A DNA stretch of 64,000 nucleotides from the NCBI GenBank assembly GCA_035498015.1, contig DATKAO010000018.1:1835-65834 (forward strand), given 5' to 3'. Below the pieces are notes generated by a model that made no database searches, was not told the origin of the DNA, and worked only from the letters and a program-made list of their open reading frames with translations. A program made the position numbers and the translations under genes. Positions 33,230 to 62,872 of the stretch are shown piece by piece. Positions within the stretch are counted from its first letter, which is position 1. Each line of letters begins with the position of its first letter. The DNA comes from Myxococcota bacterium. GTDB lineage: Bacteria; Myxococcota_A; UBA9160; SZUA-336.

Positions 33230-33248
33230 CACCGAACGGTGTTGGACG

Positions 33249-33905: not shown

Positions 33906-34010
33906 CCGCAAAGACCCAGGCGTGAGTCATGAGTAGCTTGTTAGCTGCGCCGGGTCACTGCACGCGACTACACAATTGTGTGACGGACCACGGCGCGGAC
34001 CCGAAGCGCG

Positions 34011-34039: not shown

Positions 34040-34047
34040 GCGCGGCG

Positions 34048-34428: not shown

Positions 34429-34477
34429 AAGAAGTCGTCAGTCACTCTGAGGCTTTCTCTTTTTTTCGGAGGATGCG

Positions 34478-45519: not shown

Positions 45520-45564
45520 TGCCGTCCTTCGCCGCAGAACGTAATGCGTTCGCGGCGAAAGCGC

Positions 45565-47779: not shown

Positions 47780-48478
47780 TTACCGTTCTTTTTCCGGCAA
47801 CGCCGCCAGGCGATAGCCCACGCCGTGGAGGCTTTCGAGCACCCAGGCCGAGCTGCCCAGCTTGCGCCGGATCCCCTTCACATGGGTGTCGACCACGCGG
47901 GGGGTCCGGGCCGCGCCATCGGGCCAGATCTCGGTGAGGATCTCCTCGCGGGTGAACACGTGGGTAGGGCGGCGCAGCAGCAGCCCGAGCAGCGCGAACT
48001 CGATCTCGGTCAGCGCGACCGCGTCGCCGTCGGCCAGCACCGAGCGGCGGCCGGGATCGAGGCTGATCGGCCCGTGCGCGAGCGGCGGCTCGGGCGCGCT
48101 GCGCTCGCCGTCGGCCCGGCGCAAGAGCGCCCGCACGCGCAGCGCGAGCTCGCGCGGGAAGAACGGCCGCACCACCACGTCGTCGGCGCCGGCCTCGAGC
48201 GCCAGGATCCGGTCCAGGTCCGAGGTGCTGCGAGTCACGACCAGAATGGGCACGTCCTTCGCGTCGGGGTTCTCGCGGATCGCGCGGCAGACCGCGAAGC
48301 CCGACTGGTCGCGCAGGAACATGTCGAGCACCACGGCGTTGGGCGCCGAGTCACGCAGCCGCTCGGCGGCCTCGCTGGCGGTCGAGGCTTCCGCAAGACT
48401 GAATCCCGCCCCGGACAGACAGCTCTCCAGCTCGGCTCGGCCAGCCGGATCCGAATCGACGACGAGCACACGCGCCAC
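47780..48478 (-). CDS. OmpR/PhoB-family response regulator (orphan; no kinase adjacent)
   Basis: GTG at 48478 after GGGAGG. Receiver domain RVLVVDSD...VVLDMFL...ILVVT, winged-helix LTEIEFALLGLL...VDTHVKGIRRKL. Confidence 0.8.
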   Translation of the reverse strand: MARVLVVDSDPAGRAELESCLSGAGFSLAEASTASEAAERLRDSAPNAVVLDMFLRDQSGFAVCRAIRENPDAKDVPILVVTRSTSDLDRILALEAGADDVVVRPFFPRELALRVRALLRRADGERSAPEPPLAHGPISLDPGRRSVLADGDAVALTEIEFALLGLLLRRPTHVFTREEILTEIWPDGAARTPRVVDTHVKGIRRKLGSSAWVLESLHGVGYRLAALPEKER

Positions 48479-48616
48479 GCCTCCCGTGTAGCAGGCCAAG
48501 GGAGCGTTACTGCCAAGGATCCGTGCGAAGCTCGTGAAGTCTCTGCGTCGAGCCTTCGGCAAACCGCCATCTGACCGTCACGGAGCGCCCTCGGGTGAGT
48601 GCTAACCTGCCGTTTC

Positions 48617-49249
48617 ATGTCACGGGTCGCTCTCGGAGCGCTGGCGGCGCTCGGCGCCGCAGTGATCGCCGCGGCCGTGTGGCTCCGGCCCGCGCCCGAG
48701 GTCGCGCCGGCGCCCGCTCCGAAGCCGCGAGCTGCGGCCGACGCACCGCCCGCACCCGCCGAGAACGCCCGGCCAGCGGCGGCTGCCGTCGTCGAGCCCC
48801 CGGCCGTCGCGCCGCCTCCCCCCAATTCCGCGTCGCGGACTTACGGCGCGTCGCCGGCCGAGATCCAGCTCATCGGGCTCGAGGAGGAGGCCCTGCGGCG
48901 GATCGACGTGGAGGCCGTGCTCGAGGCCGCCGGCGTCGACGTCCACGCGCTCAAAGCCCGCCCCGATGCTGCGGAAATCCTGCGCCACGTGGCCGCCGAC
49001 GAGCTCATGACCCGCAGCTACATGCGCGACTACTTCAACGACACGACCTTCCCGTACGGCTACCCGACCGAGAACGCGACCCGCGATGCGCGCGCGCACG
49101 CGGAAGGCATGATCGCCCAGCTGACCGTCGAGGGCCGGGTGGAATCTCTCACTCACGACCTCGAGTCCGACGACGTGGAGATGCCGGAGCCCAAGGTCTA
49201 CCCGGAATCCAGTGGCCGCATCTGGACTCCTCCGTCAGAGCAACCGTGA
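48617..49249 (+). CDS. membrane-anchored Ala/Pro-rich protein of unknown function
   Basis: ATG at 48617. N-terminal TM MSRVALGALAALGAAVIAAAVWL, Pro/Ala-rich linker, C-terminal globular segment. Confidence 0.4.
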   Translation: MSRVALGALAALGAAVIAAAVWLRPAPEVAPAPAPKPRAAADAPPAPAENARPAAAAVVEPPAVAPPPPNSASRTYGASPAEIQLIGLEEEALRRIDVEAVLEAAGVDVHALKARPDAAEILRHVAADELMTRSYMRDYFNDTTFPYGYPTENATRDARAHAEGMIAQLTVEGRVESLTHDLESDDVEMPEPKVYPESSGRIWTPPSEQP

Positions 49250-49333
49250 GCACACGGTTCCTTCACGCCGAGTTCGCATAATCGTCACGGTCGATCCACT
49301 GCTGCGACACCCTCGCTGCCTAGTCTTCGCACG

Positions 49334-50053
49334 ATGGAAGGCCACCAATCGGCGCTGATTTTCGCGCTGGGGCACATGACCATCGAGGGTAAGGTCACGA
49401 TGAGCCTGCTCTTCGTGCTCTCGCTGCTCTCGTGGGCCGTGATCTTCAGCAAGTGGATTGCCGTGATCCGGCAGCGCCGCGCGATGCGCCGGTTCGACGA
49501 AGCCTACGCCGAGCTGCAGGACTCACTGACGCTCGACACCGAGGCGAAAGGTCTGGCGCAGGCGCCGGCGCTGACCGTGTACGAAGCCATGCGCGAGGAG
49601 ATCGACCGGCAGACGGCGAAGGGCGCGCGCTCTCTGTCGGAGCGCAACCTGCCGTCGCTGCACGCGGTGCTCGAGAAGAGCGTGAACATCGAGTCGCTGG
49701 CGCTCGAGTCCGGCACGATCGTGCTGGCGATGGCGATCTCGGGCGGTCCGTTCATCGGACTCACCGGCACGGTGTTCGGCGTGATGGAGACCTTCTCGGG
49801 CGTCGCGCAGGCCGGTCAGGCGAACCTGGCCGCGATGGCGCCCGGCGTCGCGGGCGCGCTGGTCAACACGATCGTGGGCCTGGTCGTCGCGATCCCGGCG
49901 CTGTTCGCGTACAACCTGATCACCAAGTCGATCCAGGGCATCCAGGTCGCGCTCACGGGCTTCGCGACCGACCTCGAAGCGCGCGTGATCTCCGAGCACT
50001 ACCGCGGCGAGCGGGGCGAGCGCGACGTGCCCAAGCTCGCGGCGAGTCACTGA
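49334..50053 (+). CDS. MotA/TolQ/ExbB-family proton-channel protein (second module)
   Basis: 3-TM protein with a GPFIGLTGTVFGVMETF signature. Confidence 0.8.
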   Translation: MEGHQSALIFALGHMTIEGKVTMSLLFVLSLLSWAVIFSKWIAVIRQRRAMRRFDEAYAELQDSLTLDTEAKGLAQAPALTVYEAMREEIDRQTAKGARSLSERNLPSLHAVLEKSVNIESLALESGTIVLAMAISGGPFIGLTGTVFGVMETFSGVAQAGQANLAAMAPGVAGALVNTIVGLVVAIPALFAYNLITKSIQGIQVALTGFATDLEARVISEHYRGERGERDVPKLAASH

Positions 50054-50065
50054 GGCAGGTGACCC

Positions 50066-50467
50066 GTGAAAGCCCCTCAGCGCGGCGGCGTCGTCGCAGA
50101 CATCAACATCACCCCGCTGCTCGACCTGGCGTGGGTGCTGCTCGTGATCTTCATCCTCACGACCACCACGATCGTGCAGGGCATCGACCTCAAGCTCCCC
50201 GACGCGTCCAAGGAGCAGAAGCAGGAGATTCCGACCGAGGTCGTGACCATCTCCCTCGACCAGACGGGCACGATCTTCGTCAACGAGGAGCCCATGCCGC
50301 TGGAGCGGATGATGGAGAAGCTCCGCCTGTACAAGCTCGCGAACCCTGATTTGCCGGTGATCCTGCGCGCGGACAAGCGGCTCTACTACGAGCAGGTCGT
50401 GAAAGTGCTCGACGGCATCAAGCGCGTGCCCGTCGAGAATCTGGCCGTGGCCACGGAGGTGGAATGA
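50066..50467 (+). CDS. ExbD/TolR-family protein (second module)
   Basis: GTG start. ADINITPLLDLAWVLLVIFIL TM helix and a periplasmic domain. Confidence 0.8.
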   Translation: MKAPQRGGVVADINITPLLDLAWVLLVIFILTTTTIVQGIDLKLPDASKEQKQEIPTEVVTISLDQTGTIFVNEEPMPLERMMEKLRLYKLANPDLPVILRADKRLYYEQVVKVLDGIKRVPVENLAVATEVE

Positions 50468-51120
50468 CTCCCCAGCAGTCGACTCAGAAGAAGAAACGGA
50501 AGCGCGGCTCGAACCTGCCGGTCGTGATCGGCTTGGTGGTCGGCATTCATGCCGTGATGGGCGGCGGACTCTACGCACTCACTCAGACCGACGCCGGTCA
50601 GGAGTTCATCCGCATCCACAAGATCAAGTTTCTCGAGCCCGAGCAGGAGAAGCAGGAAGAGGCCAAGGCCCCGGAGCCGCCGCCTCTGCCGCCGCCCATC
50701 CAGCAGCAGGTCGAAGCTCCCACGGTGAGTGCAGCGCCGGCCCCGACCACCAGCGCGCCGTCGGTCTCGATCGGCGGCGGCGGCGGTACGAACTGGAGCG
50801 GTGGCAAGTTCATCGGCGGGCTCGAGGACGGCCCGATGGGCGCGTTCCACGCCGGCGTGCTGGGGCGGATCCGCAGCTGCTTCGGCAGCTGGACCGGACC
50901 GTCTCGTCCGGCCGAGGTCGCGCTCGACGTGAGTCACGAGGGATCGGTCGTCTCGTACAAGCTCGTCCACGGCACCGGATCGACCGCCGAGGACGACCAG
51001 CTCATGGACGCGGTCCGCTGCGTCCAGCAGAAGGGCGTCGGTGCTCCCCCCGAAGGCGTCGGACGCGTCGTGACCCTGCGCCTCCGGCCGTCCCACGGGG
51101 TCGCCAGTGGTCAGGGTTAG
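50464..51120 (+). CDS. TolA/TonB-like energy-transducing protein
   Basis: ATGA overlap with the upstream stop. Basic N-terminus plus TM helix, Glu/Lys and Pro-rich spacer, C-terminal VALDVSHEGSVVSYKLVHGTGSTAEDDQLMDAVRCV resembling TolA domain III / the TonB-C fold. Confidence 0.6.
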   Translation: MTPQQSTQKKKRKRGSNLPVVIGLVVGIHAVMGGGLYALTQTDAGQEFIRIHKIKFLEPEQEKQEEAKAPEPPPLPPPIQQQVEAPTVSAAPAPTTSAPSVSIGGGGGTNWSGGKFIGGLEDGPMGAFHAGVLGRIRSCFGSWTGPSRPAEVALDVSHEGSVVSYKLVHGTGSTAEDDQLMDAVRCVQQKGVGAPPEGVGRVVTLRLRPSHGVASGQG

Positions 51121-54100
51121 CCAGCAGCTGCTGTCCGTCCTGCTGTCCGGGCTGATCGCGGGACTCGGACCCGCCTCCGCGCTCGCGAACCCGGCGGGCG
51201 GGGTCGTGCAGGGCGGCGCCGCCACGATCTCGGGTCAGGGCACCTCGAACGTCACGATCAACCAGACCTCGAATTCCGCGGTGCTGTCCTGGCAGAGCTT
51301 CAACATCGCGCCCGGAGAGAGCACCAACTTCGTGCAGCCGAGCGCCCGCGCGCTCGCGCTGAACCGCATCCTCGATGGCCAGGCCTCGCAGATCCTCGGC
51401 AACCTGAACGCGAACGGCCGCGTGTATCTCATCAACCCGAACGGCATCCTGTTCGGGCAGGGCGCCGTGGTGAACGTGGGCGGCCTCGCGGCGGCCACGA
51501 ACGCGCAGGTCACCAACCTGGTGAATGCGCAGGTCGATGCGGCGGCCAGCGCGCAGGGCGCCCCGGGCGCGAGCATCACCAACCAGGGCCGCATCAACGT
51601 GGCGCCGGGGGGTGACGTGTATCTGGTCGGCGCCAAGGTCGAGAACTCGACGACCGGAGTGATCCACGTCGACGGCGGCACCGTGACGGTGGCGTCGGGC
51701 GCCACGCTCACGCTCGCGGGCGAGGATGGCGTGGCGGTCGAGTATCAGGTGCCGACCACTCCGGACAACACGGCGGTGAACCTGGGCCAGATCCTTGCGG
51801 ACAAGGGCACGGCCGACATCCGCGCCGCGGTCGTGCGCCAGGGCGCGGCGCAGGCGAGCGCCGCGGTGGAGATCGACGGACAGATCGTGCTGGTCGGTGA
51901 CTCCGTGCGGGTCGCGGGAGACACCGCGACCGACAACGGCAAGGTGGGCGTGACTGCGCTGAATGGCGACGTGGAGATCGCCGCCGGCGGCAACGTGCGC
52001 AGCAACACCGGGGACATCGCGGTGACTGCGGGTCGCGACGTGACCTTCACCTCGACCGACCGGGCCCACGACAGCGTGATCGAGACGGGCAGCGGCAACA
52101 TCGACGTGGTCGCCGAGCGCGACGTGAACCTGCAGCCCAACGTGAACGCGGCCGGGAACACGGCGATCCGCACGCGCGGCATCGACGTCGAGCAACCGGA
52201 CGGCACTGTCGTGCACGAGAAGGGCGACGGCGGCAACGTGGTCGTGATTGCGAAGACCGGCAACGTGAACGCAGGCACGGCTGATCGCTGGGTCGACTCC
52301 GTGCCGCCGCTCGAGCGCACGGCCTTCGGAACGTTCGGCCTCGACTACCCCAAGAACTTCGACCCGCTCCCCGTCGACCCGCGCGGGATCCTCGGCATCG
52401 GCTCCGAAGCCGGCGGCAACGTCACGGTGATCGCGGGTGGCAACGTCGCGACCCGCCGCACCGACGTGAACGTGACTCGCACCGGTGGCAGCGCCACGGC
52501 CCTCCCACCGTCGGACCCCGACGCACCGCTCCCGTTCGACTACGACGGGAGTCACATCGGCGTGTTCGGTCAGGCCTATACGACCCTCGAGCTGCCGCCC
52601 TTTGCCTTTCCGGTGAACAGCCTGCGGATCCCCGTCGCCAACGCGCCCAAGGCCAAGCTCACGGTGATTGCGGGCGGCGACATCACCGGCGACTACATGA
52701 TTCGCAACGGCACGGCGACGCTGCGCGCCGGCTACGCACTCGCACCCGACGCCCTCCCGCAGGTCGCCGCCGACCCGGGCGCGCTGGCGGCGATCGAGGC
52801 GAGCAGCAATCATGCCGATCCCACCAGCCAGTTCCACTTCTCCGATGCCGCGACCGCGGACCCCTCGCGCGGCTGGCTCGGCAGCCTCGGCAGCCCGCTC
52901 ACGCTCGACATGGTCTTCGCTTCGGTCGACGGGCGCGGCGCCAACGGAGTCGCACTCCGCGCGGCGGAGAACCCGTCGCTCGTCTACCCGTCGTCGAACA
53001 TCAACGCGAACGGCACCGCCAAGCTGCCGACCTACGGCGAGGACGACACTCTCGCGCTGGACGCCGAGCGCGGCGACGTGGTCCTGCTCGGAACGGACAC
53101 CGTGTTGCGGGAGGCCGGGAGCACGGCGACCACCACGCCCAACCCGTTCGTCCTGATGCTGCCTCCGAGTGTCTCGATCGCGACTCACGACTTCACGCGC
53201 AACGTCGGGTCGGAGGTCGAGTCGCGGTCCGGCGATCTCGTGATCCTGAACGACTTCCAGATGCTTCCCTCCGAACAGGGGGGCCTGTCACTGAACGTCG
53301 CGGGCGAGGTGCGGACCGCAGGCGTGGCTGCGAGCGGCAAGGCCAAGGTGCAGATCGACGTGCAGTCGTTCGGCGCCTCGGGCGACCAGAGCTTCACTCT
53401 GCTGCCGGGGCTCAAGCTGCGCGACACCGCGAACGGCGCCGAGTACACGCTGGACGGCCAGATCTCGATGCAGCCGCGCCTCCCGCCCACGCCGGCTCAG
53501 GGCTCCGTCCAGTTCAACATCTCGCCCGACGCCCTGGCGCACGGAATCACCATTCCCAAGGGTACGGTGGTCGTCGCTCAGAACGGGACGCGCTACACGA
53601 CCGACCGCGAGCTGGTGATTCCGCCGCCGGCACAACGCCCGCGGCAGACCCAGGTGGTCCTCACACTCGCCCAGGCGCCCTCGGGCCCGGTCACGGTGGC
53701 GGCGACCGCGAAGCTCGTGGGCCCCGACGGAGCGCTCTACAACCTCGACCAGGCCGTGAACTTCAAGGCGGGGCAGACGTCGGCGCTCGTCACGGTCACC
53801 GCGCAACAGGGCGGCGGCAAGGACTTGCGCCCCGGTCAGCTCCAGCTCGCAGCGCCGGTGGCCGAGTTCCCGGGGCTCACCGCGACGAACATCACGATCA
53901 GCACGCGCAAGGCCATCACCGCAGTCACTGTGACTGCGGAGGATACGGGGCTGGACGGGAACTCGCTGCCTCGTCGGGTCGCGGGCCTCGAGACTCCGAT
54001 TCCCGGCGTCATCTCGGTCACGAACTCCTCGGCGCTGAGCAACGGGAGCGACCTCGCAGAGTTCGGCAAGGTCGTGGGCGGGGGTGTGTCGCTGCCGACG

Positions 54101-56086
54101 ATCTCCGCGCTGACCGTGCTGGGTCCTGCCGGTGTGGCGCCGCAGGGCTCGACCCTGGTGATCGAGCCCGGTCAGAACCTGCCTGCCGGGATCTCCACGG
54201 AGGACATCGTGATCACGGCGGGCGGCAAGGTCGGTGGCAGTGACGCGCTCGTGCCGGCGGTGTTCCGAACGCTGCAAGTGACTCACGACGACGCGGGCAA
54301 GGTCTCGACCCGGGTCGATCCCGCGCGCGGCGAGCTCCTGGTGCTCGATCCGAGCCTGGTGTGGACCTCGTCGGCATCGGCGCCTTCTGGGCTCTCTGCC
54401 ACGGCGCACATCGTGCAGTCACGCGCGAGTCCCGACATCGACGGACGCGGTGGCGCGGTCTTCAACTACGCGGACTACTACACGACCTGCCGCTCCGGCG
54501 CCGCCTGCCGCATGCAGGACCCGGTGAACGTGGACCCGAACGGCGTGCCGCTTCCGACCACGCTCCGGGGAACCGGCCCGACTCACTCCGACAACCCGTC
54601 GCCTGCCCTCTTGCTCGCGTACGGCGGATACCACCGGATCGGCTTCGATCTCGCCGAGTCGGCCACCGTGTGGAGTGGGAAGAACGTCGTCGACCTGCAG
54701 CTCAAGGCGCAGAACACCTCGGCTACGGACCTGACTCAGATCGTCGTGCCGTACGGCAACGCCACGTTCGGCGCAGGTACCGAGACACTCGTCGACCACC
54801 AGCTCGGGTCCCCGGTCAACGTGGAGCTTCCGGACGATCCGGGCGCCGGCATGAACGTGAGTGGTCCGGGCCGGGCGCGCATGCTCGTCGGCGTTGCGCC
54901 GCACGTGGATCCGATCGAGGGCTTCGAAGGCCCGCTTGCGGCGCTCGTGCCTGCGCCCGTCGACCCGCAGGACGACGGGATCCGGCTCGCGGACTGGACC
55001 GGGAGCGCGGAGTCATTCACGGGTCTGGACGAGCGCGGGAAGCTGCCGGGCACCGGCGACGGTGTCCTGACCGCGAGCGAGGCGCCCTGGGTGCCGACCG
55101 CGAAGGCGCTCGACGGCACCGCGCTCGCCCCGGGCAGCGCGGGAAGGCTCGAGCTCGACGACGTCGGTGGCGGGGCACTGGGGTCCGTCGCCGAGCCGCT
55201 GATTCTGGGGCTGCTCACGTCCGGTAACGCGAGCAACGCGGCACTGGCGCGCGGGGGTGCGAGTCTCGAAGTGGTCACTGCGGGTGACGTGCTGATGCAC
55301 CGCTTCGGTGCCGTGGGCGCCATCCAGGGCGGCGACCTCAGCGTCACGAGCGTGGCGGGTCAGATCACCGCCACGCAGCCGCCGTCGACTTACACGCGCC
55401 AGCGCGGCTTCCTGACGATGAACGCCGAGGGCTCCACGAACGAGCCCGAGGGCGGCGGGAAGATCTCGCTCGACGCGAGCGGCGACGTCGACACCGGCGG
55501 CTCGGCCGTGGCGACGCTCTCGTCGTCGGACATCGCCATCACGACGCGGACCGGCTCCATCACCGCCGGGCACGGCGAGAAGTTCGAGATTCGGGGCATC
55601 GGCTACGACCCGGTCACAGGGACTCCCCAGATCTCGTACGCGGGTGCCGGCTTCTTCGCGTCCGGCGACGGCAACGTCAAGCTGACCGCGCGGAAGGACA
55701 TCAACCTCGGGGCGGGCATCCGGGCGCAGGGCATCCAGCTCACCGCCGGCGGGAACATCACGGCGGGCACGGGCTCTGCGCAGGCGTCGACGATCTCGAT
55801 CGACGCCGGCGGAACCATCAGCGGTCACATGTCGGCGACCAGCATCAGCATCGGCAGCGGAACGGTCTCGTCGGGAGCCACGCTCACGGCCGGCGTCGTG
55901 TCTGGAGCGGGCGGGTCCGTGTCCAATACCGGCGCGAATCAAGTGAGCGCAGGCAGCGTGCTCTCGGGCTCGAGCCCGCAGGCGGGCTCGATCACAGAGA
56001 CGGCCGCGGGCGCGGCTCAATCGGGCCTGCGCAGCGTGATCATCGACATCAGCTCACGCCCCTGCGAATCGCAAGAGTGCCGCTAG
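51107..56086 (+). CDS. two-partner-secretion exoprotein (TpsA, filamentous-haemagglutinin family)
   Basis: GTG start overlapping the TolA-like gene by 14 nt. Signal peptide, then a TPS/haemagglutination-activity domain (NPAGGVVQGGAATISGQG...LINPNGILFGQGAVVNVGGLAAATN), followed by about 1400 aa of beta-helical-type Gly/Thr/Val-rich repeats. Confidence 0.85.
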   Translation: MVRVSQQLLSVLLSGLIAGLGPASALANPAGGVVQGGAATISGQGTSNVTINQTSNSAVLSWQSFNIAPGESTNFVQPSARALALNRILDGQASQILGNLNANGRVYLINPNGILFGQGAVVNVGGLAAATNAQVTNLVNAQVDAAASAQGAPGASITNQGRINVAPGGDVYLVGAKVENSTTGVIHVDGGTVTVASGATLTLAGEDGVAVEYQVPTTPDNTAVNLGQILADKGTADIRAAVVRQGAAQASAAVEIDGQIVLVGDSVRVAGDTATDNGKVGVTALNGDVEIAAGGNVRSNTGDIAVTAGRDVTFTSTDRAHDSVIETGSGNIDVVAERDVNLQPNVNAAGNTAIRTRGIDVEQPDGTVVHEKGDGGNVVVIAKTGNVNAGTADRWVDSVPPLERTAFGTFGLDYPKNFDPLPVDPRGILGIGSEAGGNVTVIAGGNVATRRTDVNVTRTGGSATALPPSDPDAPLPFDYDGSHIGVFGQAYTTLELPPFAFPVNSLRIPVANAPKAKLTVIAGGDITGDYMIRNGTATLRAGYALAPDALPQVAADPGALAAIEASSNHADPTSQFHFSDAATADPSRGWLGSLGSPLTLDMVFASVDGRGANGVALRAAENPSLVYPSSNINANGTAKLPTYGEDDTLALDAERGDVVLLGTDTVLREAGSTATTTPNPFVLMLPPSVSIATHDFTRNVGSEVESRSGDLVILNDFQMLPSEQGGLSLNVAGEVRTAGVAASGKAKVQIDVQSFGASGDQSFTLLPGLKLRDTANGAEYTLDGQISMQPRLPPTPAQGSVQFNISPDALAHGITIPKGTVVVAQNGTRYTTDRELVIPPPAQRPRQTQVVLTLAQAPSGPVTVAATAKLVGPDGALYNLDQAVNFKAGQTSALVTVTAQQGGGKDLRPGQLQLAAPVAEFPGLTATNITISTRKAITAVTVTAEDTGLDGNSLPRRVAGLETPIPGVISVTNSSALSNGSDLAEFGKVVGGGVSLPTISALTVLGPAGVAPQGSTLVIEPGQNLPAGISTEDIVITAGGKVGGSDALVPAVFRTLQVTHDDAGKVSTRVDPARGELLVLDPSLVWTSSASAPSGLSATAHIVQSRASPDIDGRGGAVFNYADYYTTCRSGAACRMQDPVNVDPNGVPLPTTLRGTGPTHSDNPSPALLLAYGGYHRIGFDLAESATVWSGKNVVDLQLKAQNTSATDLTQIVVPYGNATFGAGTETLVDHQLGSPVNVELPDDPGAGMNVSGPGRARMLVGVAPHVDPIEGFEGPLAALVPAPVDPQDDGIRLADWTGSAESFTGLDERGKLPGTGDGVLTASEAPWVPTAKALDGTALAPGSAGRLELDDVGGGALGSVAEPLILGLLTSGNASNAALARGGASLEVVTAGDVLMHRFGAVGAIQGGDLSVTSVAGQITATQPPSTYTRQRGFLTMNAEGSTNEPEGGGKISLDASGDVDTGGSAVATLSSSDIAITTRTGSITAGHGEKFEIRGIGYDPVTGTPQISYAGAGFFASGDGNVKLTARKDINLGAGIRAQGIQLTAGGNITAGTGSAQASTISIDAGGTISGHMSATSISIGSGTVSSGATLTAGVVSGAGGSVSNTGANQVSAGSVLSGSSPQAGSITETAAGAAQSGLRSVIIDISSRPCESQECR

Positions 56087-56265
56087 CGGGGCTTCCGCGT
56101 CGGAAGCAAAGCAAAAGCGACGGTTTTGTGAGTGCCGATGCCCGTTTTATGGAGATTCGCGTAACCCAGTTCCGCAGTGAATTCGCCCGCTTATACTGCC
56201 CGCGATCCAAAAAAGTGTAGATCGTTCTGCTTCGCGTGTTGGCCTTAATCCTTGGAGGGAATGAA

Positions 56266-56979
56266 ATGCATCGCAACTTGTCCCCCTGGCTCCGGAGGGG
56301 CGTCGTGGCCGTGGCAGGCTTCGCGCTCTTGTTCGGGGCCTCGCTCAGCGCTCGAGCGGGCTCGCTCGTCGGCGTATACCAGAAGAACGGCTTCGAGTAT
56401 CTCGTGAACCTGGGCACCGGCGTCGGGCCACTCACTTACGACGCGAACATCACCGAGTTCGGAGGCTCCACCGCCGGTGCGCTCTTCAGCGTCGTCGGCG
56501 TCGTCGACCGCAACCTGGTGGATGACTTCGGAAGCGCGATCGGCAACATCGAGTACAGCAAGACCGGCTCGCCAGGCTCGCTCAGCGACGACGCGATCCT
56601 CACGGCGGGAACCCGCGTCGCGGGCTTCGGCACTTCGGACTCGTGGTTCGACCTGATCCCGGCGATCGCCAACGGCGCGCCCGGGACTCACACCACGATT
56701 CCCAACAACCTCGTCAACTCCTTCGCGGTGCGAGTCGACAACACCTTCTTCGGCGCCTTCCCCTTCTCGATCGCCGGGACGATCGCAGCCGACGGCACGC
56801 TCACGACCTCGGTGTACCAAGCCATCTCGAGCAGTGACGTCAACGGCACGCCCCAGGTGAACAGCTTGCTCGTGACTCTGCATGTGACACCCACGGGTCT
56901 GGCTCCGGAGCCCATGAGCATGGTGCTGATCGGCGTGGCCCTCGCGGGCGTCGCCGCCGTGCGCCGCCGCTCCGCCTGA
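56266..56979 (+). CDS. PEP-CTERM sorting-signal secreted protein
   Basis: GGAGGG RBS, signal peptide, C-terminal TGLAPEPMSMVLIGVALAGVAAVRRRSA. Confidence 0.7.
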   Translation: MHRNLSPWLRRGVVAVAGFALLFGASLSARAGSLVGVYQKNGFEYLVNLGTGVGPLTYDANITEFGGSTAGALFSVVGVVDRNLVDDFGSAIGNIEYSKTGSPGSLSDDAILTAGTRVAGFGTSDSWFDLIPAIANGAPGTHTTIPNNLVNSFAVRVDNTFFGAFPFSIAGTIAADGTLTTSVYQAISSSDVNGTPQVNSLLVTLHVTPTGLAPEPMSMVLIGVALAGVAAVRRRSA

Positions 56980-57042
56980 TCGCTCGACTCACTTTCCGCA
57001 TCAAGCGAACCCTCTCGTAACCCCTTTGTGGAGAACCTACAG

Positions 57043-58812
57043 ATGACCCTTGCCCGAAAATCGATCAGCTGGGTGATCGCGGCCGGCCTGATGGTCGGCT
57101 TGGCCTCACCCGCCTTTGCCTTGAATCCCTCGACGACCAGTGACGCAGGCACCGATCGCGACGGTCTGCGCACCGGTGGCTGCACCGGCTGCTTCGACGC
57201 GCAGATGCAGGCCGCGATCGCGAGCTTCGCCAGCATCAACCGCGTGTTCCGCATCTGTCAGAAGGGCGCGGCGCTGACCGGCGACAACTGCGACGGCAGC
57301 GGCAACGGCGTCCTGGCTCAGTTCATCGAGCTCCAGGGCGTGCTGCGCAACTCGAGCACCGACCCGCTCGGGCTCGGCGTTCCGGGCGGATCGCCGAACG
57401 ACCCCAACCAGCTCGTGACTTACCGCATCTCCGGCAACGGCTCCGGCAACGGTCTGGCGTGCGCGTCCGGCTCGGGCCCGACCGGGATCGGCTTCATCGC
57501 GCCCGAAGGCTTCGACGGCATTCCGAACACCGCCGACGACGCCGGAGGCAATGGCGTGAACACCTTCGGACAGCCCGGCCCCGGCACCAACAACGGCCTC
57601 CCGGGAGCGACCGGCGACCCCAACGACACCGCGCCGGCGATGACCGCGTGTGACACGAAGCTCCGCAAGTCGGACGGCGCCGCGAACGGCTACGCGTTCA
57701 CGTTCCCCGGGAGCGTCGCCGAGCCCGACACGGCCTATCCCGCGCGACTGACTCAGGAGTTCTGCATCATCAACGTCGACAAGGCTCCCGGCGACAAGCA
57801 GATCCTGAACGATCGCGTCGGCGCTGCGGCACCGGGCGTGATCACCAAGCTCGGTCAGCTCAACGCTGCCAACGAGACCACCAACCTCACCATGTCCTGC
57901 GACACGGGTTTCGCGGATCTTCCGCCGACGGACTTCATCCAGGCCTCGTTGAACACGCTCACGTTCGCGAACCAGGACACGTTCGGCGCGCAGATCTTCA
58001 AGATCGTCGCGAGCAAGGACGTCCACGCGAACGGAACCAACAACAAGAAGGTGCAGCTCGCCAAGCCCCAGATCGAGGGCATCTTCAACGCATGGTCTGG
58101 GCAGACCACCTGCAGCTGGCAGCAGGTCGGCGCTGACTCGGGCACTCACCACGTGGCCGGTCCGCCGCTCTCCGGAACGGACATGAACGTGTGCTACCGC
58201 GCGCTCGGCTCGGGCACGCGAGAGGTGTTCCGCAACACGTGGGACGCGAATACCAAGGGCGATGCCAACCAGGGCCAGGGCAGCACGGTGGGCATCACGA
58301 ACACCTGCGCTCAGCGGCTGGGCTCGATCACCGCGCCGGCGAACACGCCGTTCCGCAAGACTCTGATCGAGAACGGTGGAACGAACGACGTGAAGACGTG
58401 CGTGAGCACCAACCTGGGCGCAGTCGGCTACGTCGACGGGTTCATCAATACGGATCCCGCCAATCCCCTCTTCTATGGGGTTCCCGTCGACGGCGTGGAC
58501 CCGGACACGAACGACCTGAAGCTGCTCACTCGCTGCGGCCTCTACCGGTACTGGGGCCCGCTCGCGGGCGGCACCGGCGGTCGCCTGGGTGGCATCGCCA
58601 CGGATCCCAAGACGGGTCACCGCTTCGCGATGAAGGTGGCGCAGATCTTCGTGACCAACGAGTCATATCTGCCCTCGAACGGCCTGAACTACAACAAGAC
58701 CGCAACCGACGGCGCGAGCGTCACTCAGTTCGTCTCGCCGGCGTTCCCCGCGGCCGATGCGTGCCCCGGGTCGATCAACCCGCCCGGCACCATTCCCGGT
58801 GTCGCTCCGTGA
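57043..58812 (+). CDS. secreted Gly/Asn-rich protein with a C-terminal PstS/PBP-like (phosphate-binding-type) domain
   Basis: Signal peptide MTLARKSISWVIAAGLMVGLASPAFA. CYRALGSGTREVFRNTW resembles the SGSGT motif of phosphate-binding PBP_like_2 proteins. Followed by a strong terminator. Confidence 0.45.
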   Translation: MTLARKSISWVIAAGLMVGLASPAFALNPSTTSDAGTDRDGLRTGGCTGCFDAQMQAAIASFASINRVFRICQKGAALTGDNCDGSGNGVLAQFIELQGVLRNSSTDPLGLGVPGGSPNDPNQLVTYRISGNGSGNGLACASGSGPTGIGFIAPEGFDGIPNTADDAGGNGVNTFGQPGPGTNNGLPGATGDPNDTAPAMTACDTKLRKSDGAANGYAFTFPGSVAEPDTAYPARLTQEFCIINVDKAPGDKQILNDRVGAAAPGVITKLGQLNAANETTNLTMSCDTGFADLPPTDFIQASLNTLTFANQDTFGAQIFKIVASKDVHANGTNNKKVQLAKPQIEGIFNAWSGQTTCSWQQVGADSGTHHVAGPPLSGTDMNVCYRALGSGTREVFRNTWDANTKGDANQGQGSTVGITNTCAQRLGSITAPANTPFRKTLIENGGTNDVKTCVSTNLGAVGYVDGFINTDPANPLFYGVPVDGVDPDTNDLKLLTRCGLYRYWGPLAGGTGGRLGGIATDPKTGHRFAMKVAQIFVTNESYLPSNGLNYNKTATDGASVTQFVSPAFPAADACPGSINPPGTIPGVAP

Positions 58813-58853: not shown

Positions 58854-58897
58854 GGGGGCCTGGATCCGATTGCGGATCCAGGCCCCCTTCGCTTTTG
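58854..58897 (+). terminator. rho-independent terminator
   Basis: 14-bp perfect stem GGGGGCCTGGATCC / GGATCCAGGCCCCC with a 6-nt loop, followed by TTCGCTTTTG. A second 8-bp hairpin CAGGCTCTaaagAGAGCCTG lies at 58826..58845. Confidence 0.7.
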
Positions 58898-59005
58898 AAT
58901 CTCACGGTTCCTTCGCGAACGCGGAGAGACTCACACGCAACCTTCACAGAACCGAGAGATCTCCTTCACGAGAGCGCTACAGAGCAGGTGCTAGGTTGCC
59001 TGGGG

Positions 59006-60859
59006 ATGCGGGGCCGGGAGCTCATTGCAGTTCTATTTGTCGTGGTGTCGTTCGCGCTCGCCCGGACGGCGAGCGCCGACGACGCCGGTGCGTCGACGTT
59101 CGCCTCGGGTGAGCGTCTGTACCGCACGCGCAAGTGGACGATGGACGAGATCCCGGTGCCGGCGCGACCCGTGGCGCGAGCTGCGCCCGAGGTCAAGGCT
59201 CCGAACGGCCCGGTCTTCGCGATCCGCCGCTTCGAGATCGTCGGAAACACTCTTCTGCCCAGGGACGAGGTCGACAAGACGCTCGCGCCCTACGTGACTC
59301 CCAAGGCGACCTTCGACACGATCGAGCAAGCGCGCGACGCGCTGCAGCAGCGCTACGCGAGCGACGGCTTCATCGCGGTGGCGGTCGGCGTGCCACCGCA
59401 GACCGTCGAGAGCGGGAGCGTGCGCCTCGACGTGGCCGAGGCGCGCATCGGCAACGTCACGGTCGAGAACGAAGGCCAGCGCTGGATCTCCGACGCACGC
59501 GTCCGTGCGCTGACTCCTCACATCCAGTCCGGCGCGATCCTGCGCGAGTCGGACCTGCGCCAGGACCTGACCGCGGCCAACACGAGCGCCGATCGCATCA
59601 TCCGGCCGGTGCTGACCGCGGGCAAGCAGCCGGGGATCGTCGACGTGAAGCTGATCGTCGACGACCAGGCGCCCGTGCACGCCTCGGTGAATCTCGACAA
59701 CGACCGCACCCCGGGATCGCCTCACTCCCGCCTCGAGACGAACTTCAACTACAACAACCTCTGGGACCTCGACCACGCGCTGGGTCTCACCTACATCACG
59801 TCTCCCACCGACTCCAGCGCGGTGCTGATCGGCACCGCCAACTACAGCGCGCCGATGCCCTGGAACCCGAACGAGCAGCTCATGGGTTACTGGGCCTACT
59901 CGGACACGTTCAGCAACGTGCCGCTGGTCCCGGGTCTGGGCAGCCTCGGCAACGGGCAGAGCTTCGGCCTGCGCTACAACGTCGCGGCGCCGGATTTCTC
60001 GGTCTGGGAGAAGCCGGTACGCGCCGGAATCACCGCGGGCGTCGACTACAAGGACATCCACAGCACGCTGCGGCAGGACTCGAACGACCCGAACCAGTCG
60101 GGCGCCGAGATCAAGACCCCGATCCGCTACCTCCCGTTCCTGCTCAACCTGTGGACGAGCTACACCGGCCGCGACGACTTCCTGGCCGCGTCGGTCGGCG
60201 ATCACTGGAACTACGCAGGGCTCGTCTCGGGCGGCAGCAGCGACGACTTCCGCGCGAATCGCTCCGCGAACAACGTGGATGGCAACTACCACGTCATGGT
60301 GTGGACCGCCGACTGGCGGCACCGGCTCTCGATGGCCGACGGCGAGAGCTGGCTGGCCAACCTGAGTCAGTCGGCGCTCGGTCCGCTATGGCCGCACACG
60401 GGCATCCCTCCCGAAGCGATCGGCTTGTTCGACGACTGGGCGCTCAGCGTGCACGTCAACGGCCAGCTCGCGAGTCAGCCGCTGATTCCCACCGAGCAGT
60501 ACGCCGCGGGCGGCGTGAGCAGCGTGCGCGGCTACCTGCAGAGCGAGATCTTCGGCGACTCCGCCTGGGCTTTCAACATCGAGCTCTGGACGCGCCGTTA
60601 CTCGTTCCCGATCGGCGCGGCCGGCTATCCGTTCGACCTGCGGCCCTCGGCGTTCTGGGACCACGCCTGCATGCACAACCTCGATCCCGGCGAAGGCGAG
60701 AAGTCGGGTCAGTGCATGTCCTCGGTCGGTCTGGGGCTGCAGCTCGCGGTCACACGCTGGTTCACGGGTCAGCTTTATCTCGCCGACCCGCTCGACACCA
60801 CCCCCAATACGACGGCCGGCAACGTCCGGCTCCATTTCCGCCTGACGGGCGGCTTCTGA
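59006..60859 (+). CDS. TPS outer-membrane transporter (TpsB; ShlB/FhaC/HecB family)
   Basis: Signal peptide from the ATG at 59006 (within ORF 58895..60859). POTRA region FAIRRFEIVGNTLLPRDEVDKTL...RLDVAEARIGNVTVEN, C-terminal beta-barrel ending RLTGGF. Confidence 0.8.
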   Translation: MRGRELIAVLFVVVSFALARTASADDAGASTFASGERLYRTRKWTMDEIPVPARPVARAAPEVKAPNGPVFAIRRFEIVGNTLLPRDEVDKTLAPYVTPKATFDTIEQARDALQQRYASDGFIAVAVGVPPQTVESGSVRLDVAEARIGNVTVENEGQRWISDARVRALTPHIQSGAILRESDLRQDLTAANTSADRIIRPVLTAGKQPGIVDVKLIVDDQAPVHASVNLDNDRTPGSPHSRLETNFNYNNLWDLDHALGLTYITSPTDSSAVLIGTANYSAPMPWNPNEQLMGYWAYSDTFSNVPLVPGLGSLGNGQSFGLRYNVAAPDFSVWEKPVRAGITAGVDYKDIHSTLRQDSNDPNQSGAEIKTPIRYLPFLLNLWTSYTGRDDFLAASVGDHWNYAGLVSGGSSDDFRANRSANNVDGNYHVMVWTADWRHRLSMADGESWLANLSQSALGPLWPHTGIPPEAIGLFDDWALSVHVNGQLASQPLIPTEQYAAGGVSSVRGYLQSEIFGDSAWAFNIELWTRRYSFPIGAAGYPFDLRPSAFWDHACMHNLDPGEGEKSGQCMSSVGLGLQLAVTRWFTGQLYLADPLDTTPNTTAGNVRLHFRLTGGF

Positions 60860-60872
60860 TCTCGGAGGACCC

Positions 60873-62459
60873 ATGCACCACCGCGCCGCCCGATGCCTCT
60901 CTTTGGCCGCCGTTGTGACACTGTACTGTGTCACAGGCATCGCCTTCGCCGACGATGCGCAGCCTCCGAAGCCCTCCGACGCCGCGGCCGGCATGCTCGA
61001 TGCGATGCGCGAGAAGGGCATCATCACCGAGGCCGAGTACGAGGATCTCTACAAACGCCAGGCCCTGTACGAGATGGAGCAGAAGGAGGCCTCGGCGCTG
61101 CCCGCCTGGCTGCGCGACTGGACCTTCGGCGGTGACGCCGGCGTGCGCTTCGACGAAGTCGACCGCGGCGGCAAGATCAAGCTGAACAAGCCGCTCTTCT
61201 CGAGCCAGGACCCGGTGAATCTCACCGACGGGACCGCGAGCGCGAAGCGCGACCGCTTCCGCTTCCGGCTGCGGCTCGGCGCCGAGCGCAAGCTCGGCGA
61301 CGATTTCCTGGTCGGCTTCCGGATCGCCACGGCCCAGGCCAGCGCCTTCGGCGTCGACGCGAGCAGCCAGAACACGCTCGGCGTCAACTTCTCGCGCCGC
61401 TTCAACACGGACCCCCGGTCCGCGTGGGTGACGGCGGGTGACTACTTCGCGCCGAAGGGCATTGCGGTCGACCGGATCTACATCCAGTGGGCGCCGCACC
61501 TCGTCGACGGCCTCTCCTTCCAGGTCGGCAAGATGGAGAACGCTTTCTGGTCGCGTGACTTCTCCGGCGACATCATGGTCTGGGACCACGACATCAGCCC
61601 CGAGGGCGGGCTGATCCAGTACGGCCACAGCTTCTTCGGCGAGCGAATGTGGGTGCACGTGCGCGGGTCGTACTTCCAGGTCGACGAGGTCCCGAACGCG
61701 ACCATCCCGGGTCCGCTGCCCGCCACCGACGGCAGCTCGACCTTCCCGCCCGACGTGGACGAGAAGGACCCGTTCATGTACGCGGCACAGGTCGATTTCT
61801 CGGGCGACGTGACTCCCTGGCTGCGCGCAGGTGCGCGCGTGTCCTACTACGACGTGAAGGACGTGAACATGCGGTTTGCCGCCGCGAGCGAGGATCTCGG
61901 AAACGGCGGCGCGTCGATCAAGAACAACCCGCTGCTCGCGATCTTCACGCCGGCGCTCACCGACGGCCGCTCGCGGGGTGAGATGCGCGAGATCGTCTAC
62001 GACATGTTCATGAAGTTCACGCCCTGGGAAGGCTGGTCGCTCACGCCGTGGTTCCAGCTCACGCACATGTTCGAGGTGTCGAGCGAGAACTACGGCTACG
62101 ACACCGGCTTCGACCTCCTCGCGCCCACCAATACCAAGCTCACCTTCATGTGGGCGTCGATGCCGAGGAACGGGACGATGGCGGTGTTCACCGACTCCGA
62201 CTTCTTCGACGGCTACACGAACGCGCGCGGCTGGGGGCTCAGCCTGGAGCAGGCGATCAACCGCTGGGTGTCGCTGCGCGGCAGCTATCTCTCGTCCACC
62301 GAGCGCAGCAAGAACTGCGGCGCTTTCGAAGGCTCGGGAGCGAGCCAGCTCTGTGACACCGCCTTCTGGGGAGGCACCCCACCTTCCGCGCTCGGCAACT
62401 TCCGCCGCCAGGTCCTCGACCGGGATCGCATCCTGGTCGACCTCTTGGTCAAGTTCTGA
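60873..62459 (+). CDS. outer-membrane beta-barrel (putative porin)
   Basis: Signal peptide, alternating amphipathic strands, C-terminal ...LLVKF (terminal Phe). Confidence 0.5.
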   Translation: MHHRAARCLSLAAVVTLYCVTGIAFADDAQPPKPSDAAAGMLDAMREKGIITEAEYEDLYKRQALYEMEQKEASALPAWLRDWTFGGDAGVRFDEVDRGGKIKLNKPLFSSQDPVNLTDGTASAKRDRFRFRLRLGAERKLGDDFLVGFRIATAQASAFGVDASSQNTLGVNFSRRFNTDPRSAWVTAGDYFAPKGIAVDRIYIQWAPHLVDGLSFQVGKMENAFWSRDFSGDIMVWDHDISPEGGLIQYGHSFFGERMWVHVRGSYFQVDEVPNATIPGPLPATDGSSTFPPDVDEKDPFMYAAQVDFSGDVTPWLRAGARVSYYDVKDVNMRFAAASEDLGNGGASIKNNPLLAIFTPALTDGRSRGEMREIVYDMFMKFTPWEGWSLTPWFQLTHMFEVSSENYGYDTGFDLLAPTNTKLTFMWASMPRNGTMAVFTDSDFFDGYTNARGWGLSLEQAINRWVSLRGSYLSSTERSKNCGAFEGSGASQLCDTAFWGGTPPSALGNFRRQVLDRDRILVDLLVKF

Positions 62460-62464: not shown

Positions 62465-62872
62465 GTGCGAACGCTGGCAGTCACACTCGCGTTCGCGCTG
62501 ACTCTCGCGAGCTCGCTCTCGTGCAAGCCCGAGGACCCGGCCCCGCTCGAAGCCGAGCGCGCGAAGCTTTTGGAGAGCACGGTCCCGAAGGACGACTACT
62601 GGCGCGAGGTCGAGCGCAAAGGAAGCGCGCTCAAGACCCAGAAGGCCGCGGCTCAGCGCAGCGCGCGCGCCGCCGCGGACCGAGCGCAGATCGAGCCCGC
62701 CATCGAGCAGATGCGCAAGGCGCTTGCCGACGCCAAGCAAGTCAATGCGCAGGTCGAGGAGCAGGTCGCCGGCCTGGACGCGCAGAGCAAGAAGCTGCAC
62801 GCGCGCCAGCAGGAGCTGGAGAGCTATCTCGCGCGCACCGGTCCGCCCGACGTCGGGGCCAAGAAGCCGTGA
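62465..62872 (+). CDS. coiled-coil lipoprotein
   Basis: GTG start. Lipobox LASSLSC, then coiled-coil-forming Ala/Gln/Lys/Glu-rich sequence. Confidence 0.5.
   Translation: MRTLAVTLAFALTLASSLSCKPEDPAPLEAERAKLLESTVPKDDYWREVERKGSALKTQKAAAQRSARAAADRAQIEPAIEQMRKALADAKQVNAQVEEQVAGLDAQSKKLHARQQELESYLARTGPPDVGAKKP

Follow-up and report, generated by a model that had tools for sequence, protein, structure and literature searches.

We analyzed a 64,000-nucleotide (nt) stretch of DNA from a Myxococcota bacterium (contig DATKAO010000018.1; this whole stretch is called the window below), in which the genes of an ExbB/ExbD/TonB-like motor lie immediately upstream of tpsA, the gene for the exoprotein of a system for two-partner secretion (TPS). 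The motor is a private paralogue that is co-inherited with the TPS cluster. It belongs to a self-contained envelope cluster of 11-12 genes (~15 kb, window ~47.8-64 kb) that is specific to a clade of uncultured Myxococcota, and we propose with moderate confidence that this cluster works as a module for nutrient limitation (phosphate scavenging being most likely), which has its own Ton/Tol-like energiser and follows the same logic as HxuCBA of Haemophilus influenzae and the pdt cluster of Pseudomonas aeruginosa. The TPS-linked Ton motor described here is a new variant of an arrangement that has been published, and left unexplained, in P. aeruginosa. TPS is taught as energy-independent and Ton as the engine of plugged receptors; a Ton/Tol-like motor that is co-inherited with TPS fits neither. 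The four central genes are as follows.

49334..50053, plus strand: ExbB/TolQ-like proton-channel subunit of 239 aa (MotA_ExbB 1e-24)
50066..50467, plus strand: ExbD/TolR-like subunit of 133 aa (ExbD 2.2e-28)
50464..51120, plus strand: TolA/TonB-like energy transducer of 218 aa (TonB_2 1.4e-4, fold match)
51107..56086, plus strand: TpsA exoprotein of 1659 aa with a Sec signal peptide (TPS domain 6e-25)

The original prediction, made from the sequence of the window, described these genes as head-to-tail and overlapping. The ATGA overlap of exbD and the tonB-like gene was found at 50464-50467, with GGAGG upstream, and the GTG start of tpsA at 51107 overlaps the end of the tonB-like gene (TAG, 51118-51120) by 14 nt. 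In contrast, exbB does not overlap exbD; its TGA stop at 50051-53 is followed by a 12-nt spacer and the GTG start of exbD at 50066. The stretch from exbB to tpsA leaves no room for a promoter.

To relate the motor to TpsA, loci were compared in both directions. The scan from the TpsA side used one genome per species and gave 12 loci with full-length relatives of the window TpsA and 66 with generic TpsAs, which were taken as controls. A TonB-like gene lies directly upstream of tpsA in 12/12 loci, together with ExbB and ExbD genes wherever the contig reaches. No ExbB/ExbD was detected by tblastn in the 66 control loci. The family hidden Markov model (HMM), which detected the window's own distant ExbB/ExbD paralogue as a positive control, found a motor in only one control locus (L055), plus a fragment in another (L073). 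The co-occurrence of TolQRA-like genes with this TpsA clade, which had been suggested as a check, is thus 12/12 against 1-2/66 in the controls. In the opposite direction, the alignment of the TonB-like protein was used to seed a scan of metagenomes, which gave 40 loci. TpsA is present in 19/19 loci that have at least 1.6 kb of downstream DNA, and ExbD is upstream in 27/27 loci that have upstream DNA.

The family of the TonB-like protein is small, with 70, 16 and 12 representatives at E<=1e-3, 1e-10 and 1e-30, respectively, among 1.84e9, and a protein homologue search with this protein returned close relatives only. Because of the two-way co-occurrence and this narrow family, we conclude that the motor is a private paralogue of the TPS cluster; chance adjacency is ruled out by the same two results, as is a generic paralogue family without co-conservation, which the original prediction had named as part of its refuting case. 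The full-length relatives of TpsA form 33 clusters whose names are Myxococcota or absent, and the remaining matches share the TPS domain only; the 12 genome loci come from Myxococcota or 'delta-proteobacterium' metagenome-assembled genomes, and the window TpsA is itself identical to a protein from a 'Myxococcota bacterium' genome of this kind. The ExbB-like protein is 46-90% identical in all related loci, and the cluster, from the regulator through the lipoproteins, is syntenic down to 39% TpsA identity. A second ExbB/ExbD/TonB-like set in the window (32071-33905) lies >15 kb from the cluster and shows 27-37% identity to the cluster motor, over partial lengths. Thus, the claim that the motor is dedicated to TpsA is partly borne out by co-conservation in both directions, but it was drawn too narrowly, since the genes form part of a larger module and the same motor subfamily also occurs without TPS.

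The spacing between the tonB-like gene and tpsA was compared in 32 metagenome loci. The genes overlap in 9 loci, are 12-92 nt apart in 14, and are separated by ~1.03-1.2 kb in the other 9; in L001, the larger gap holds an AraC-type gene on the opposite strand. Since other loci have such a larger gap with an opposite-strand AraC gene, the 14-nt coupling is a feature of one subclade. The operon-level fusion of the motor with the TPS genes, as originally described, therefore applies to the overlap in the window subclade; it does not extend to the loci with the AraC gap, and tpsB probably belongs to a second transcription unit (see below).

The motor proteins score slightly more Tol-like than Exb-like, and under every equivalog cut-off. 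The ExbB-like protein reached 140 bits with the TolQ model (cut-off 221) and 113 bits with the ExbB model, both under the equivalog cut-offs, and the ExbD-like protein reached 89 bits with the TolR model against a cut-off of 127; the NCBIfam equivalog cut-offs for ExbB and ExbD were not reached either. The TonB-like protein had no TolA model match in the NCBIfam scan, and its TonB_2 match (1.4e-4) only just passes the cut-off (22.4 bits, 22 being required). Its relatives are annotated as TolA or TonB in public sources. In an alignment of 13 homologues (A2), a transmembrane (TM) histidine (His29) and a poly-Pro stretch are invariant, and a C-terminal domain of ~90 residues is conserved, as is a Gly-rich NW-GGKF-DGP-GAFHA motif. 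In the AlphaFold2 (AF2) model, a TM helix (aa 18-40) is joined by a disordered Pro-rich linker to a C-terminal domain of alpha-beta-beta-alpha-beta order (aa 121-212, pLDDT ~90). The top Foldseek matches of the model in the PDB were almost exclusively TolA domain III (TolAIII) and the C-terminal domains of TonB, HasB and FusB, and the target-normalised TM-score against TolAIII was 0.61-0.69. Single-sequence PDB searches with the TonB-like protein, the PstS-like protein and the porin of the cluster gave no match. Although its Pfam match alone is marginal, the third gene product is, on the alignment, the predicted fold and the Foldseek matches, a TonB/TolA-like transducer. The TM aspartate of the ExbD-like protein is kept, in ITPLLDLAW. 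Because this aspartate, the TM histidine and the TonB/TolA fold of the transducer are all kept, the module looks like a working Ton/Tol-type motor.

The motor resembles the inner-membrane part of Tol-Pal (TolQ-TolR-TolA-TolB-Pal-CpoB), a three-gene module of the same families, and its transducer has a C-terminal domain nearest TolA domain III. It differs from Tol-Pal in its scores under the TolQ/TolR equivalog cut-offs, in the missing TolB/Pal, and in its link to TPS. No TolB, Pal or OmpA family match was found in any cluster product, and none among the called genes of the related loci. A housekeeping Tol-Pal system is rejected on these scores and on the absence of TolB/Pal from the cluster. 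The earlier statement that neither tolB-pal nor a TonB-dependent receptor lies nearby is correct for the cluster products, but the window itself holds two receptors (6062-8110 and 29712-32195), at least 17 kb from the cluster.

In myxobacteria, the Agl-Glt machinery uses a TolQR-type motor for a purpose other than Tol-Pal, and its TonB-like periplasmic proteins contact outer-membrane barrels. We weighed a surface-motility or adhesion engine akin to Agl-Glt, together with a housekeeping Tol system that lies beside a TPS locus by chance. The host is a myxobacterial relative, the TolQ/TolR/TolA models slightly outscore those of ExbB/ExbD/TonB, and coiled-coil lipoproteins and a tetratricopeptide repeat (TPR) protein lie downstream; the TPR protein of L003 gives a weak YbgF-type TPR match (1.9e-3). 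These points are outweighed by the lack of TolB and Pal in the cluster and by the strict two-way co-inheritance with TpsA, which excludes chance adjacency. Furthermore, the window has one ExbD/TolR-like gene whereas Agl-Glt combines AglR with two TolR-like proteins (AglQ/AglS), and the NCBIfam/Pfam scans of the cluster proteins, whose libraries were not checked for Glt models, gave no gliding (Glt/Agl) family match. TPS, PstS-like and Porin_5 components are not known to belong to Glt. We consider this explanation very improbable, and no feature was found in favor of the gliding analogy drawn in the original prediction.

TpsA carries three recognizable regions.

51203..51919, plus strand: TPS secretion domain of TpsA, aa 33-271, with an NPNG motif (PF05860 6e-25, TIGR01901 4e-23)
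53327..54106, plus strand: Baseplate_J-like small beta-barrel repeats, TpsA aa 741-1000 (PF04865 1.3e-12)
56036..56083, plus strand: C-terminal motif of TpsA, a strand VIIDISS followed by RPCESQEC with a Cys pair

The NPNG motif lies in LINPNGILFG. In a PDB sequence search, the TPS domain matched HMW1-PP (2odl, 1.6e-33), EtpA (3e-31) and HxuA (6e-22), and no match to FHA, HpmA or CdiA was obtained. By its sequence, TpsA is thus of the HMW1/EtpA/HxuA type and not FhaB/CdiA-like; it falls in the adhesin/nutrient-capture branch, where 1659 aa is a normal size. The view of TpsA as a short member of the FhaB family is therefore abandoned. The absence of a toxin of the contact-dependent inhibition (CDI) type, also noted in the original prediction, was confirmed; a motif search found no VENN-type motif and segment-wise Pfam scans found no enzymatic or toxin domain in TpsA. 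A missing CDI toxin is expected from the branch to which TpsA belongs. A CDI/FhaB-type toxin was rejected on these grounds, and the next gene encodes a PEP-CTERM protein. The Baseplate_J-like match (PF04865) arises when the TpsA segment is scanned alone, and weak matches occur on homologues too.

The C-terminus of TpsA is distinctive. A strand pattern [IVL][DEQ][IV]x[STV] lies within the final 25 aa in 28/31 family members as against 1/49 control TpsAs, and the Cys pair is present in ~23/31 members. In HMW1 and HxuA, a disulfide-looped C-terminus stays in the periplasm as a surface anchor (PMC5422565). By analogy, the window TpsA is probably surface-tethered, and a periplasmic disulfide anchor of the HMW1/HxuA kind is plausible. 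HMW1 and EtpA, which have the closest solved TPS domains, are similar to TpsA in size, and the C-terminal Cys pair is consistent with an anchor of the HMW1/HxuA type. Unlike them, the window passenger has Baseplate_J-like barrels, and the Cys pair is missing in about 1/4 of the window family. In addition, no glycosyltransferase family match was found in any cluster protein, unlike the partner set of HMW1, and a review of TPS mentions no Ton/Tol motor for either HMW1 or EtpA (PMC5422565).

The plus-strand run at 48.6-64 kb shows a strong bias in G+C at third codon positions (GC3) across its genes; the window as a whole has ~70% G+C. The other genes of the cluster are listed below.

47780..48490, minus strand: OmpR/PhoB-family response regulator, divergent (Response_reg 2.5e-19, Trans_reg_C 5e-19)
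48599..49249, plus strand: membrane-anchored protein of 216 aa, the first plus-strand gene (open reading frame, GC3 bias)
56236..56979, plus strand: PEP-CTERM-tailed protein of 247 aa (Pfam 1.7e-3; TIGR02595 16.7 bits, cut-off 16)
57028..58812, plus strand: secreted protein of 594 aa with a predicted PstS fold (PBP_like_2; AF2/Foldseek, profile)
58895..60859, plus strand: TpsB transporter, likely start ATG 59006 (POTRA_2 2.6e-16, ShlB 5.7e-10, Omp85 1.3e-5)
60873..62459, plus strand: Porin_5-family outer-membrane barrel of 528 aa (PF16930 2.2e-25)
62465..62872, plus strand: coiled-coil lipoprotein of 135 aa (lipobox, weak coiled-coil-type matches only), kept in related loci
62869..63522, plus strand: coiled-coil lipoprotein of 217 aa, with a GTGA overlap with the preceding gene, kept in related loci
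63519..64000, plus strand: start of a membrane protein that runs past the window end (the L003 homologue has 586 aa and C-terminal TPR repeats)

The phosphate theme comes in part from the 594-aa protein. The protein itself had no family match; some of its homologues are assigned to PF12849 or named 'phosphate transport substrate-binding protein' by JGI. Its AF2 model (pLDDT 83, pTM 0.85) was searched with Foldseek, and the top 42 PDB matches were all PstS, DING or PhoX (best E=2e-10). Searched against the PDB, a profile of the family matched PstS sequences at 2.7e-5, and R-x-x-G-S-G-T-R, NGSxxGI and aIGY were aligned in these matches. All family members keep R386, G389, S390 and G391, and nearly all keep S134. 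From the model and these motifs, the 594-aa protein is a probable phosphate or oxyanion binder. It has the same fold and the same motifs (R-x-x-G-S-G-T, NGSxxG and aIGY) as PstS and DING proteins, and it differs from them in its length (~590 aa against 260-375), its insertions, a CxxC in the first loop and the absence of an adjacent pstCAB. All PstS-like matches with genomic information lie in this cluster type. A shorter, apparently free-standing homologue (P0187) turned out to be a piece of this same cluster, on a contig with frameshifts.

As for the other products, the PEP-CTERM gene is found at the same position in L001, L007 and L123. In TpsB, POTRA domains are combined with a barrel; the L6 VRGY motif of the barrel is found in 8/8 aligned TpsBs, and the mature N-terminus, DAGASTFE, is conserved within the clade. 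The Porin_5 protein has a strongly conserved N-terminal periplasmic helix that is SHOCT-like (SHOCT 3.6e-4 in an N-terminal segment scan). The 216-aa protein had no family match in the NCBIfam/Pfam scans, and its homologues in related loci are 30-48% identical. A homologue of the regulator stands at the same position in most related loci that extend far enough upstream. The regulator probably starts near 48490, and its longest open reading frame extends to 48562.

In the phosphate-scavenging reading, TpsB would export TpsA, which would remain tethered at the surface by its C-terminal strand (and disulfide loop) kept in the periplasm. At the cell surface, TpsA would act with the PstS-like protein to capture a phosphorus source. 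The TonB/TolA-like protein would span the periplasm and deliver work derived from the proton-motive force (PMF) to a periplasm-exposed outer-membrane element, and this work would drive release, gating or import via an outer-membrane component without a classical plug. Among the candidate contacts of the transducer, we rank the C-terminal tail of TpsA first, followed by the porin's N-terminal helix and then by the N-terminus of TpsB. The strand of TpsA is common to distant Ton-linked TpsAs, the porin helix is backed by a locus with motor and porin (L125, described below), and the TpsB N-terminus is conserved in the clade only. Use of DAGASTFE as a universal docking motif is excluded by its absence from the Ton-linked TpsBs of L124 and L128. 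The cluster thus offers specific candidate contact sites for TPS-linked Ton systems.

As a speculation, which we regard as rather unlikely, the TonB/TolA-like protein might grip the C-terminal strand of TpsA (a basic patch, then G-V-h-I-D/E-V-x-S/V) that is retained in the periplasm while the passenger is threaded through TpsB. The PMF-derived force would then be passed along the threaded polypeptide to the extracellular beta-helix and not to a plug, and it would strip or hand over phosphorus held by the exoprotein and the giant PstS-like 'phosphophore'. P. aeruginosa, Sporomusa and other lineages with TPS-linked Ton systems might share such a mechanism. If true, force transmitted via a threaded TpsA polypeptide would energise the outer membrane in a novel manner.

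HxuCBA of H. influenzae is a known case with a similar logic. It shares with the window an HxuA-type TPS domain and the combination of a surface-retained, nutrient-capturing TpsA with a Ton-energised outer-membrane step (PMC5422565). However, HxuC is a plugged TonB-dependent transporter that runs on the general TonB and serves haem, whereas the window cluster has no receptor, a private motor and a phosphate theme.

Remote relatives of the motor bear on whether the work is used by the TPS pathway itself. Their ExbB proteins are 39-43% identical to the window ExbB over the full length, far closer than the window's own paralogue. In three metagenome contigs (L124, L127 and L128), the motor comes right behind a tpsB-tpsA pair; a response regulator gene is next in L124, and genes for a response regulator and a GDPD phosphodiesterase are next in L128. 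These contigs have 52-63% G+C against ~70% in the window. A further case is L055 on the chromosome of Sporomusa aerivorans DSM 13326 (8272-16017), where tpsB, tpsA (TPS and GLUG repeats), exbB, exbD and tonB lie in a row. This host is a cultured diderm Firmicute whose ExbB falls outside the Myxococcota subfamily (36% identity over 80 aa). With P. aeruginosa pdtAB-exbB2D2-tonB4 added, the association of TPS and Ton recurs in unrelated lineages. In L124 and L128, the TpsAs have next to nothing in common with the window TpsA passenger, and their C-termini consist of a basic patch followed by GV(V/T)IEV(E/N)V, which resembles the Myxococcota strand.

These loci suggest an alternative in which the motor serves the TPS pathway, so that it energises or gates the export, retention, retraction or release of TpsA via TpsB, and the PstS-like protein and the porin are accessory or passengers. 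The set tpsB-tpsA-exbB-exbD-tonB, without Porin_5 or PstS-like genes, is the minimal recurrent one (L127, L128, L124 and Sporomusa L055), the 14-nt overlap with tpsA in the window and near relatives fits such a role, and the C-terminal strand motif common to Ton-linked TpsAs is missing from 48/49 controls. However, canonical TPS secretion needs no inner-membrane energy source (PMC5422565), 9/32 loci have a gap of 1-1.2 kb instead of the overlap, and L125 has the motor with Porin_5, PEP-CTERM and Pst genes without TPS. We consider this alternative possible, though on balance somewhat unlikely. It is compatible with the phosphate-scavenging reading, from which it differs mainly in the use of the work.

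The locus L125 (Ga0494709_0000250, 784-13832) carries pstB, pstB, pstA, pstC, pstS, phoU/LMWPc, PhoU_div and PHO4, and directly after these genes follow exbB-exbD-tonB-exbD of the same subfamily, Porin_5 and a PEP-CTERM gene. It points to another possible partner of the motor, the Porin_5 barrel, through which uptake would be energised without a plug; the TPS pair would then be a later add-on that delivers a surface factor. This is supported by the joining of motor, Porin_5, PEP-CTERM, pstSCAB, phoU and PHO4 in a locus without TPS and by the strongly conserved periplasmic helix of the cluster porin. In P. aeruginosa, too, the putative porin PA0696 comes right after tonB4 (PMC7035377). Against it, L124, L127 and L128 have motor and TPS and no Porin_5 in the stretch seen, the porin has no recognisable TonB box, and the L125 Porin_5 is only 23% identical to that of the window. 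We hold the porin as principal partner to be improbable. In the remaining remote relatives, the upstream side of L126 and L130 is cut and they adjoin T2SSC and ModABC genes, and L129 is too short to judge.

Several of these results weigh against phosphate scavenging by a motor-driven TPS module. No Plug or TonB-dependent-receptor Pfam match was found in any cluster protein, and a regex search found no TonB-box-like match near a terminus of the cluster proteins; its sole match, TAVTVTA, is internal to the TpsA passenger, and a canonical TonB box in the cluster proteins is thereby ruled out. No single partner is universal for the motor subfamily: in L125 the same subfamily occurs without TPS, in L131 the motor follows pseudopilin-like genes, again without TPS, and L124, L127 and L128 have no Porin_5 in the stretch seen, L127 and L128 being also without a PstS-like gene. 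The control TpsAs have a different conserved ending, LxIVxGGVxLP, and since controls have conserved C-termini of their own, the conserved TpsA C-terminus alone is no sign of TonB docking. As for the 594-aa protein, it has large insertions and ~14 conserved cysteines and is about twice the size of PstS, and GGCTGCF is the sequence of the first ligand-binding loop in most members, with a CxxC that is nearly invariant (57028-58812, aa 45-51 of P0138). No pstCAB or other ABC transporter genes were found in the cluster or related loci. Because of the double size, the CxxC in the first motif and the lack of pstCAB in the cluster, the ligand of the PstS-like protein can be named only tentatively. The phosphate link, drawn from fold, motifs, neighbourhoods and analogy, is itself a weakness of the reading. 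The regulator cannot be assigned as PhoB, as CreB and PhoB score alike and both under the cut-off, and the adjacency of ppk-ppx is limited to the 65%-identity subclade. Furthermore, free phosphate normally needs no energised outer-membrane step.

Two of these features deserve a further remark. In a minority of the PstS-like members, the first loop reads GGSSA(A/G)F or GGSTALF, and the CxxC of the majority suggests a disulfide or a metal site beside the anion pocket. Among the control TpsAs, it is the Burkholderiales-type ones (MBG/YDG/GLUG; L017-L082), many of which carry LxIVxGGVxLP ~10-15 residues before the C-terminus, where it may be a TpsB-related anchor or release signal.

On balance, we still favor phosphate scavenging. 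The PstS-fold protein, the porin and the relative of the motor in a pstSCAB-phoU/PHO4 locus give a first concrete functional lead, phosphorus scavenging, and the pdt cluster of P. aeruginosa agrees with it. There, pdtA (PA0690), pdtB (PA0692), exbB2-exbD2-tonB4 (PA0693-0695) and the putative porin PA0696 lie together with further genes and an AraC-type regulator, and the cluster is co-induced by the ECF sigma factor VreI (PUMA3) and PhoB under phosphate starvation (PMC2729926, PMC7035377). Its TonB system was described as 'still uncharacterized', and no PstS-like or PEP-CTERM gene is reported (PMC2729926, PMC7035377). A role of such a motor had originally been placed outside known TPS; this stands in so far as canonical TPS needs no inner-membrane energy (PMC5422565), but the published pdtAB-exbB2-exbD2-tonB4 arrangement had been overlooked (PMC2729926, PMC7035377). 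Compared by published gene content only, both clusters combine a TPS pair with a private ExbB-ExbD-TonB and a putative porin, both are surrounded by ECF-sigma, AraC-type and PhoB-type regulators, and both have a phosphate-starvation theme. They differ in gene order, since tpsA-tpsB precede the motor in P. aeruginosa whereas the motor precedes tpsA in the window. PdtA is not among the full-length relatives of the window TpsA, it is presumably much larger, and the hosts are Gammaproteobacteria and Myxococcota, respectively. In the literature, no later functional study of ExbB2-ExbD2-TonB4 and no paper on a TPS-PstS-Ton cluster were found, nor did a search on Porin_5 (PF16930) yield anything of use. 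The phosphorus lead makes the question of P. aeruginosa ExbB2-ExbD2-TonB4 testable in a tractable organism.

The non-coding DNA of the cluster was compared among related loci. In the intergenic region 48491..48598 (plus strand), GGAAC-N16-AGTCTC is conserved in an alignment of five loci (A5; L003 6638-6786), and the window reads GGATC. By its sequence, this element resembles a promoter of the extracytoplasmic function (ECF) sigma type. L001-type loci carry ECF sigma and AraC genes, and an ECF sigma factor and a 265-aa protein take the place of the 216-aa protein directly upstream of exbB; window-type loci have no ECF sigma gene. A signalling device, in which the TonB/TolA-like protein relays a surface signal to an ECF sigma factor or a response regulator as in PUMA3 (VreA/VreI/VreR), was considered for these reasons: the ECF sigma and 265-aa genes before exbB in L001-type loci, the ECF-like GGAAC-N16-GTC element in the regulator-proximal intergenic region, and the TolA/TonB-like C-terminal domain of VreA (PMC2729926). 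It is at odds with the absence of an ECF sigma gene from window-type loci and of a signalling domain from the TonB-like protein. The full ExbB/ExbD stator, catalytic Asp included, is moreover kept everywhere, which points to mechanical work. We give this signalling role little credence.

Just upstream of exbB, a non-coding element at 49250..49333 (plus strand) reads CCTTCACG...GTTCGCA...GATACAC (49260). The mean column identity of this element is 74% (alignment A6) across loci whose proteins are 65-80% identical, and it is a candidate promoter or operator. After the PstS-like gene, a 15-bp GC-rich hairpin (58854..58887, plus strand) is conserved in L003, L006, L088 and L091; in L088, one of its pairs carries a compensatory change. 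This hairpin is a candidate terminator, attenuator or mRNA-stabilising element. The region upstream of tpsB (58888..59005, plus strand) has CCTTCRC boxes at 58886, 58910, 58941 and 58963, plus GCTACA. The four copies of CCTTCRC thus fall in a span of 84 nt, whereas the window has about one per 2.6 kb overall, and the boxes at 58941 and 58963, 22 bp apart, are conserved in five loci. The CCTTCACG element before exbB is similar to these boxes. From their sequences, the CCTTCRC boxes and the exbB-upstream element are candidate binding sites for the neighbouring response regulator, whose best NCBIfam matches are CreB and PhoB, both far under the cut-offs.

tpsA and tpsB are on the same strand, with two genes and the conserved hairpin between them. 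Because this hairpin and a conserved upstream element of its own precede tpsB, tpsB probably lies in a second transcription unit. The sequence thus suggests that there are probably two co-regulated units, one from exbB to the pstS-like gene and one from tpsB onwards. A sigma-70 promoter scan gave no match, and a terminator scan was at chance level except for the hairpin at 58854.

Other observations concern the surroundings of the cluster and the quality of the loci. The genes ppx (with a His_Phos_1 domain) and ppk adjoin the regulator at 44074-47670 on the minus strand. At the ppk-ppx position, L001-type loci have citrate synthase, acetyltransferase and LMWPc phosphatase genes. In L016 and L123, several genes of the cluster are split by apparent frameshifts, which are probably assembly errors and not pseudogenes.

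The two receptors of the window lie in other contexts. The receptor at 6062-8110 is a TonB-dependent receptor with a Plug and a barrel, far from the cluster. The other belongs to a second Ton locus at 29712-37316, which consists of a receptor with a CarboxypepD_reg N-domain (29712-32195), ExbB (32071-32844), an ExbD-like protein (32831-33229), a Pro/Ala-rich protein of 218 aa that is a possible TonB (33249-33905), ZnuA (35460-36662) and an ABC ATPase (36663-37316). This second locus looks like a zinc-uptake system.

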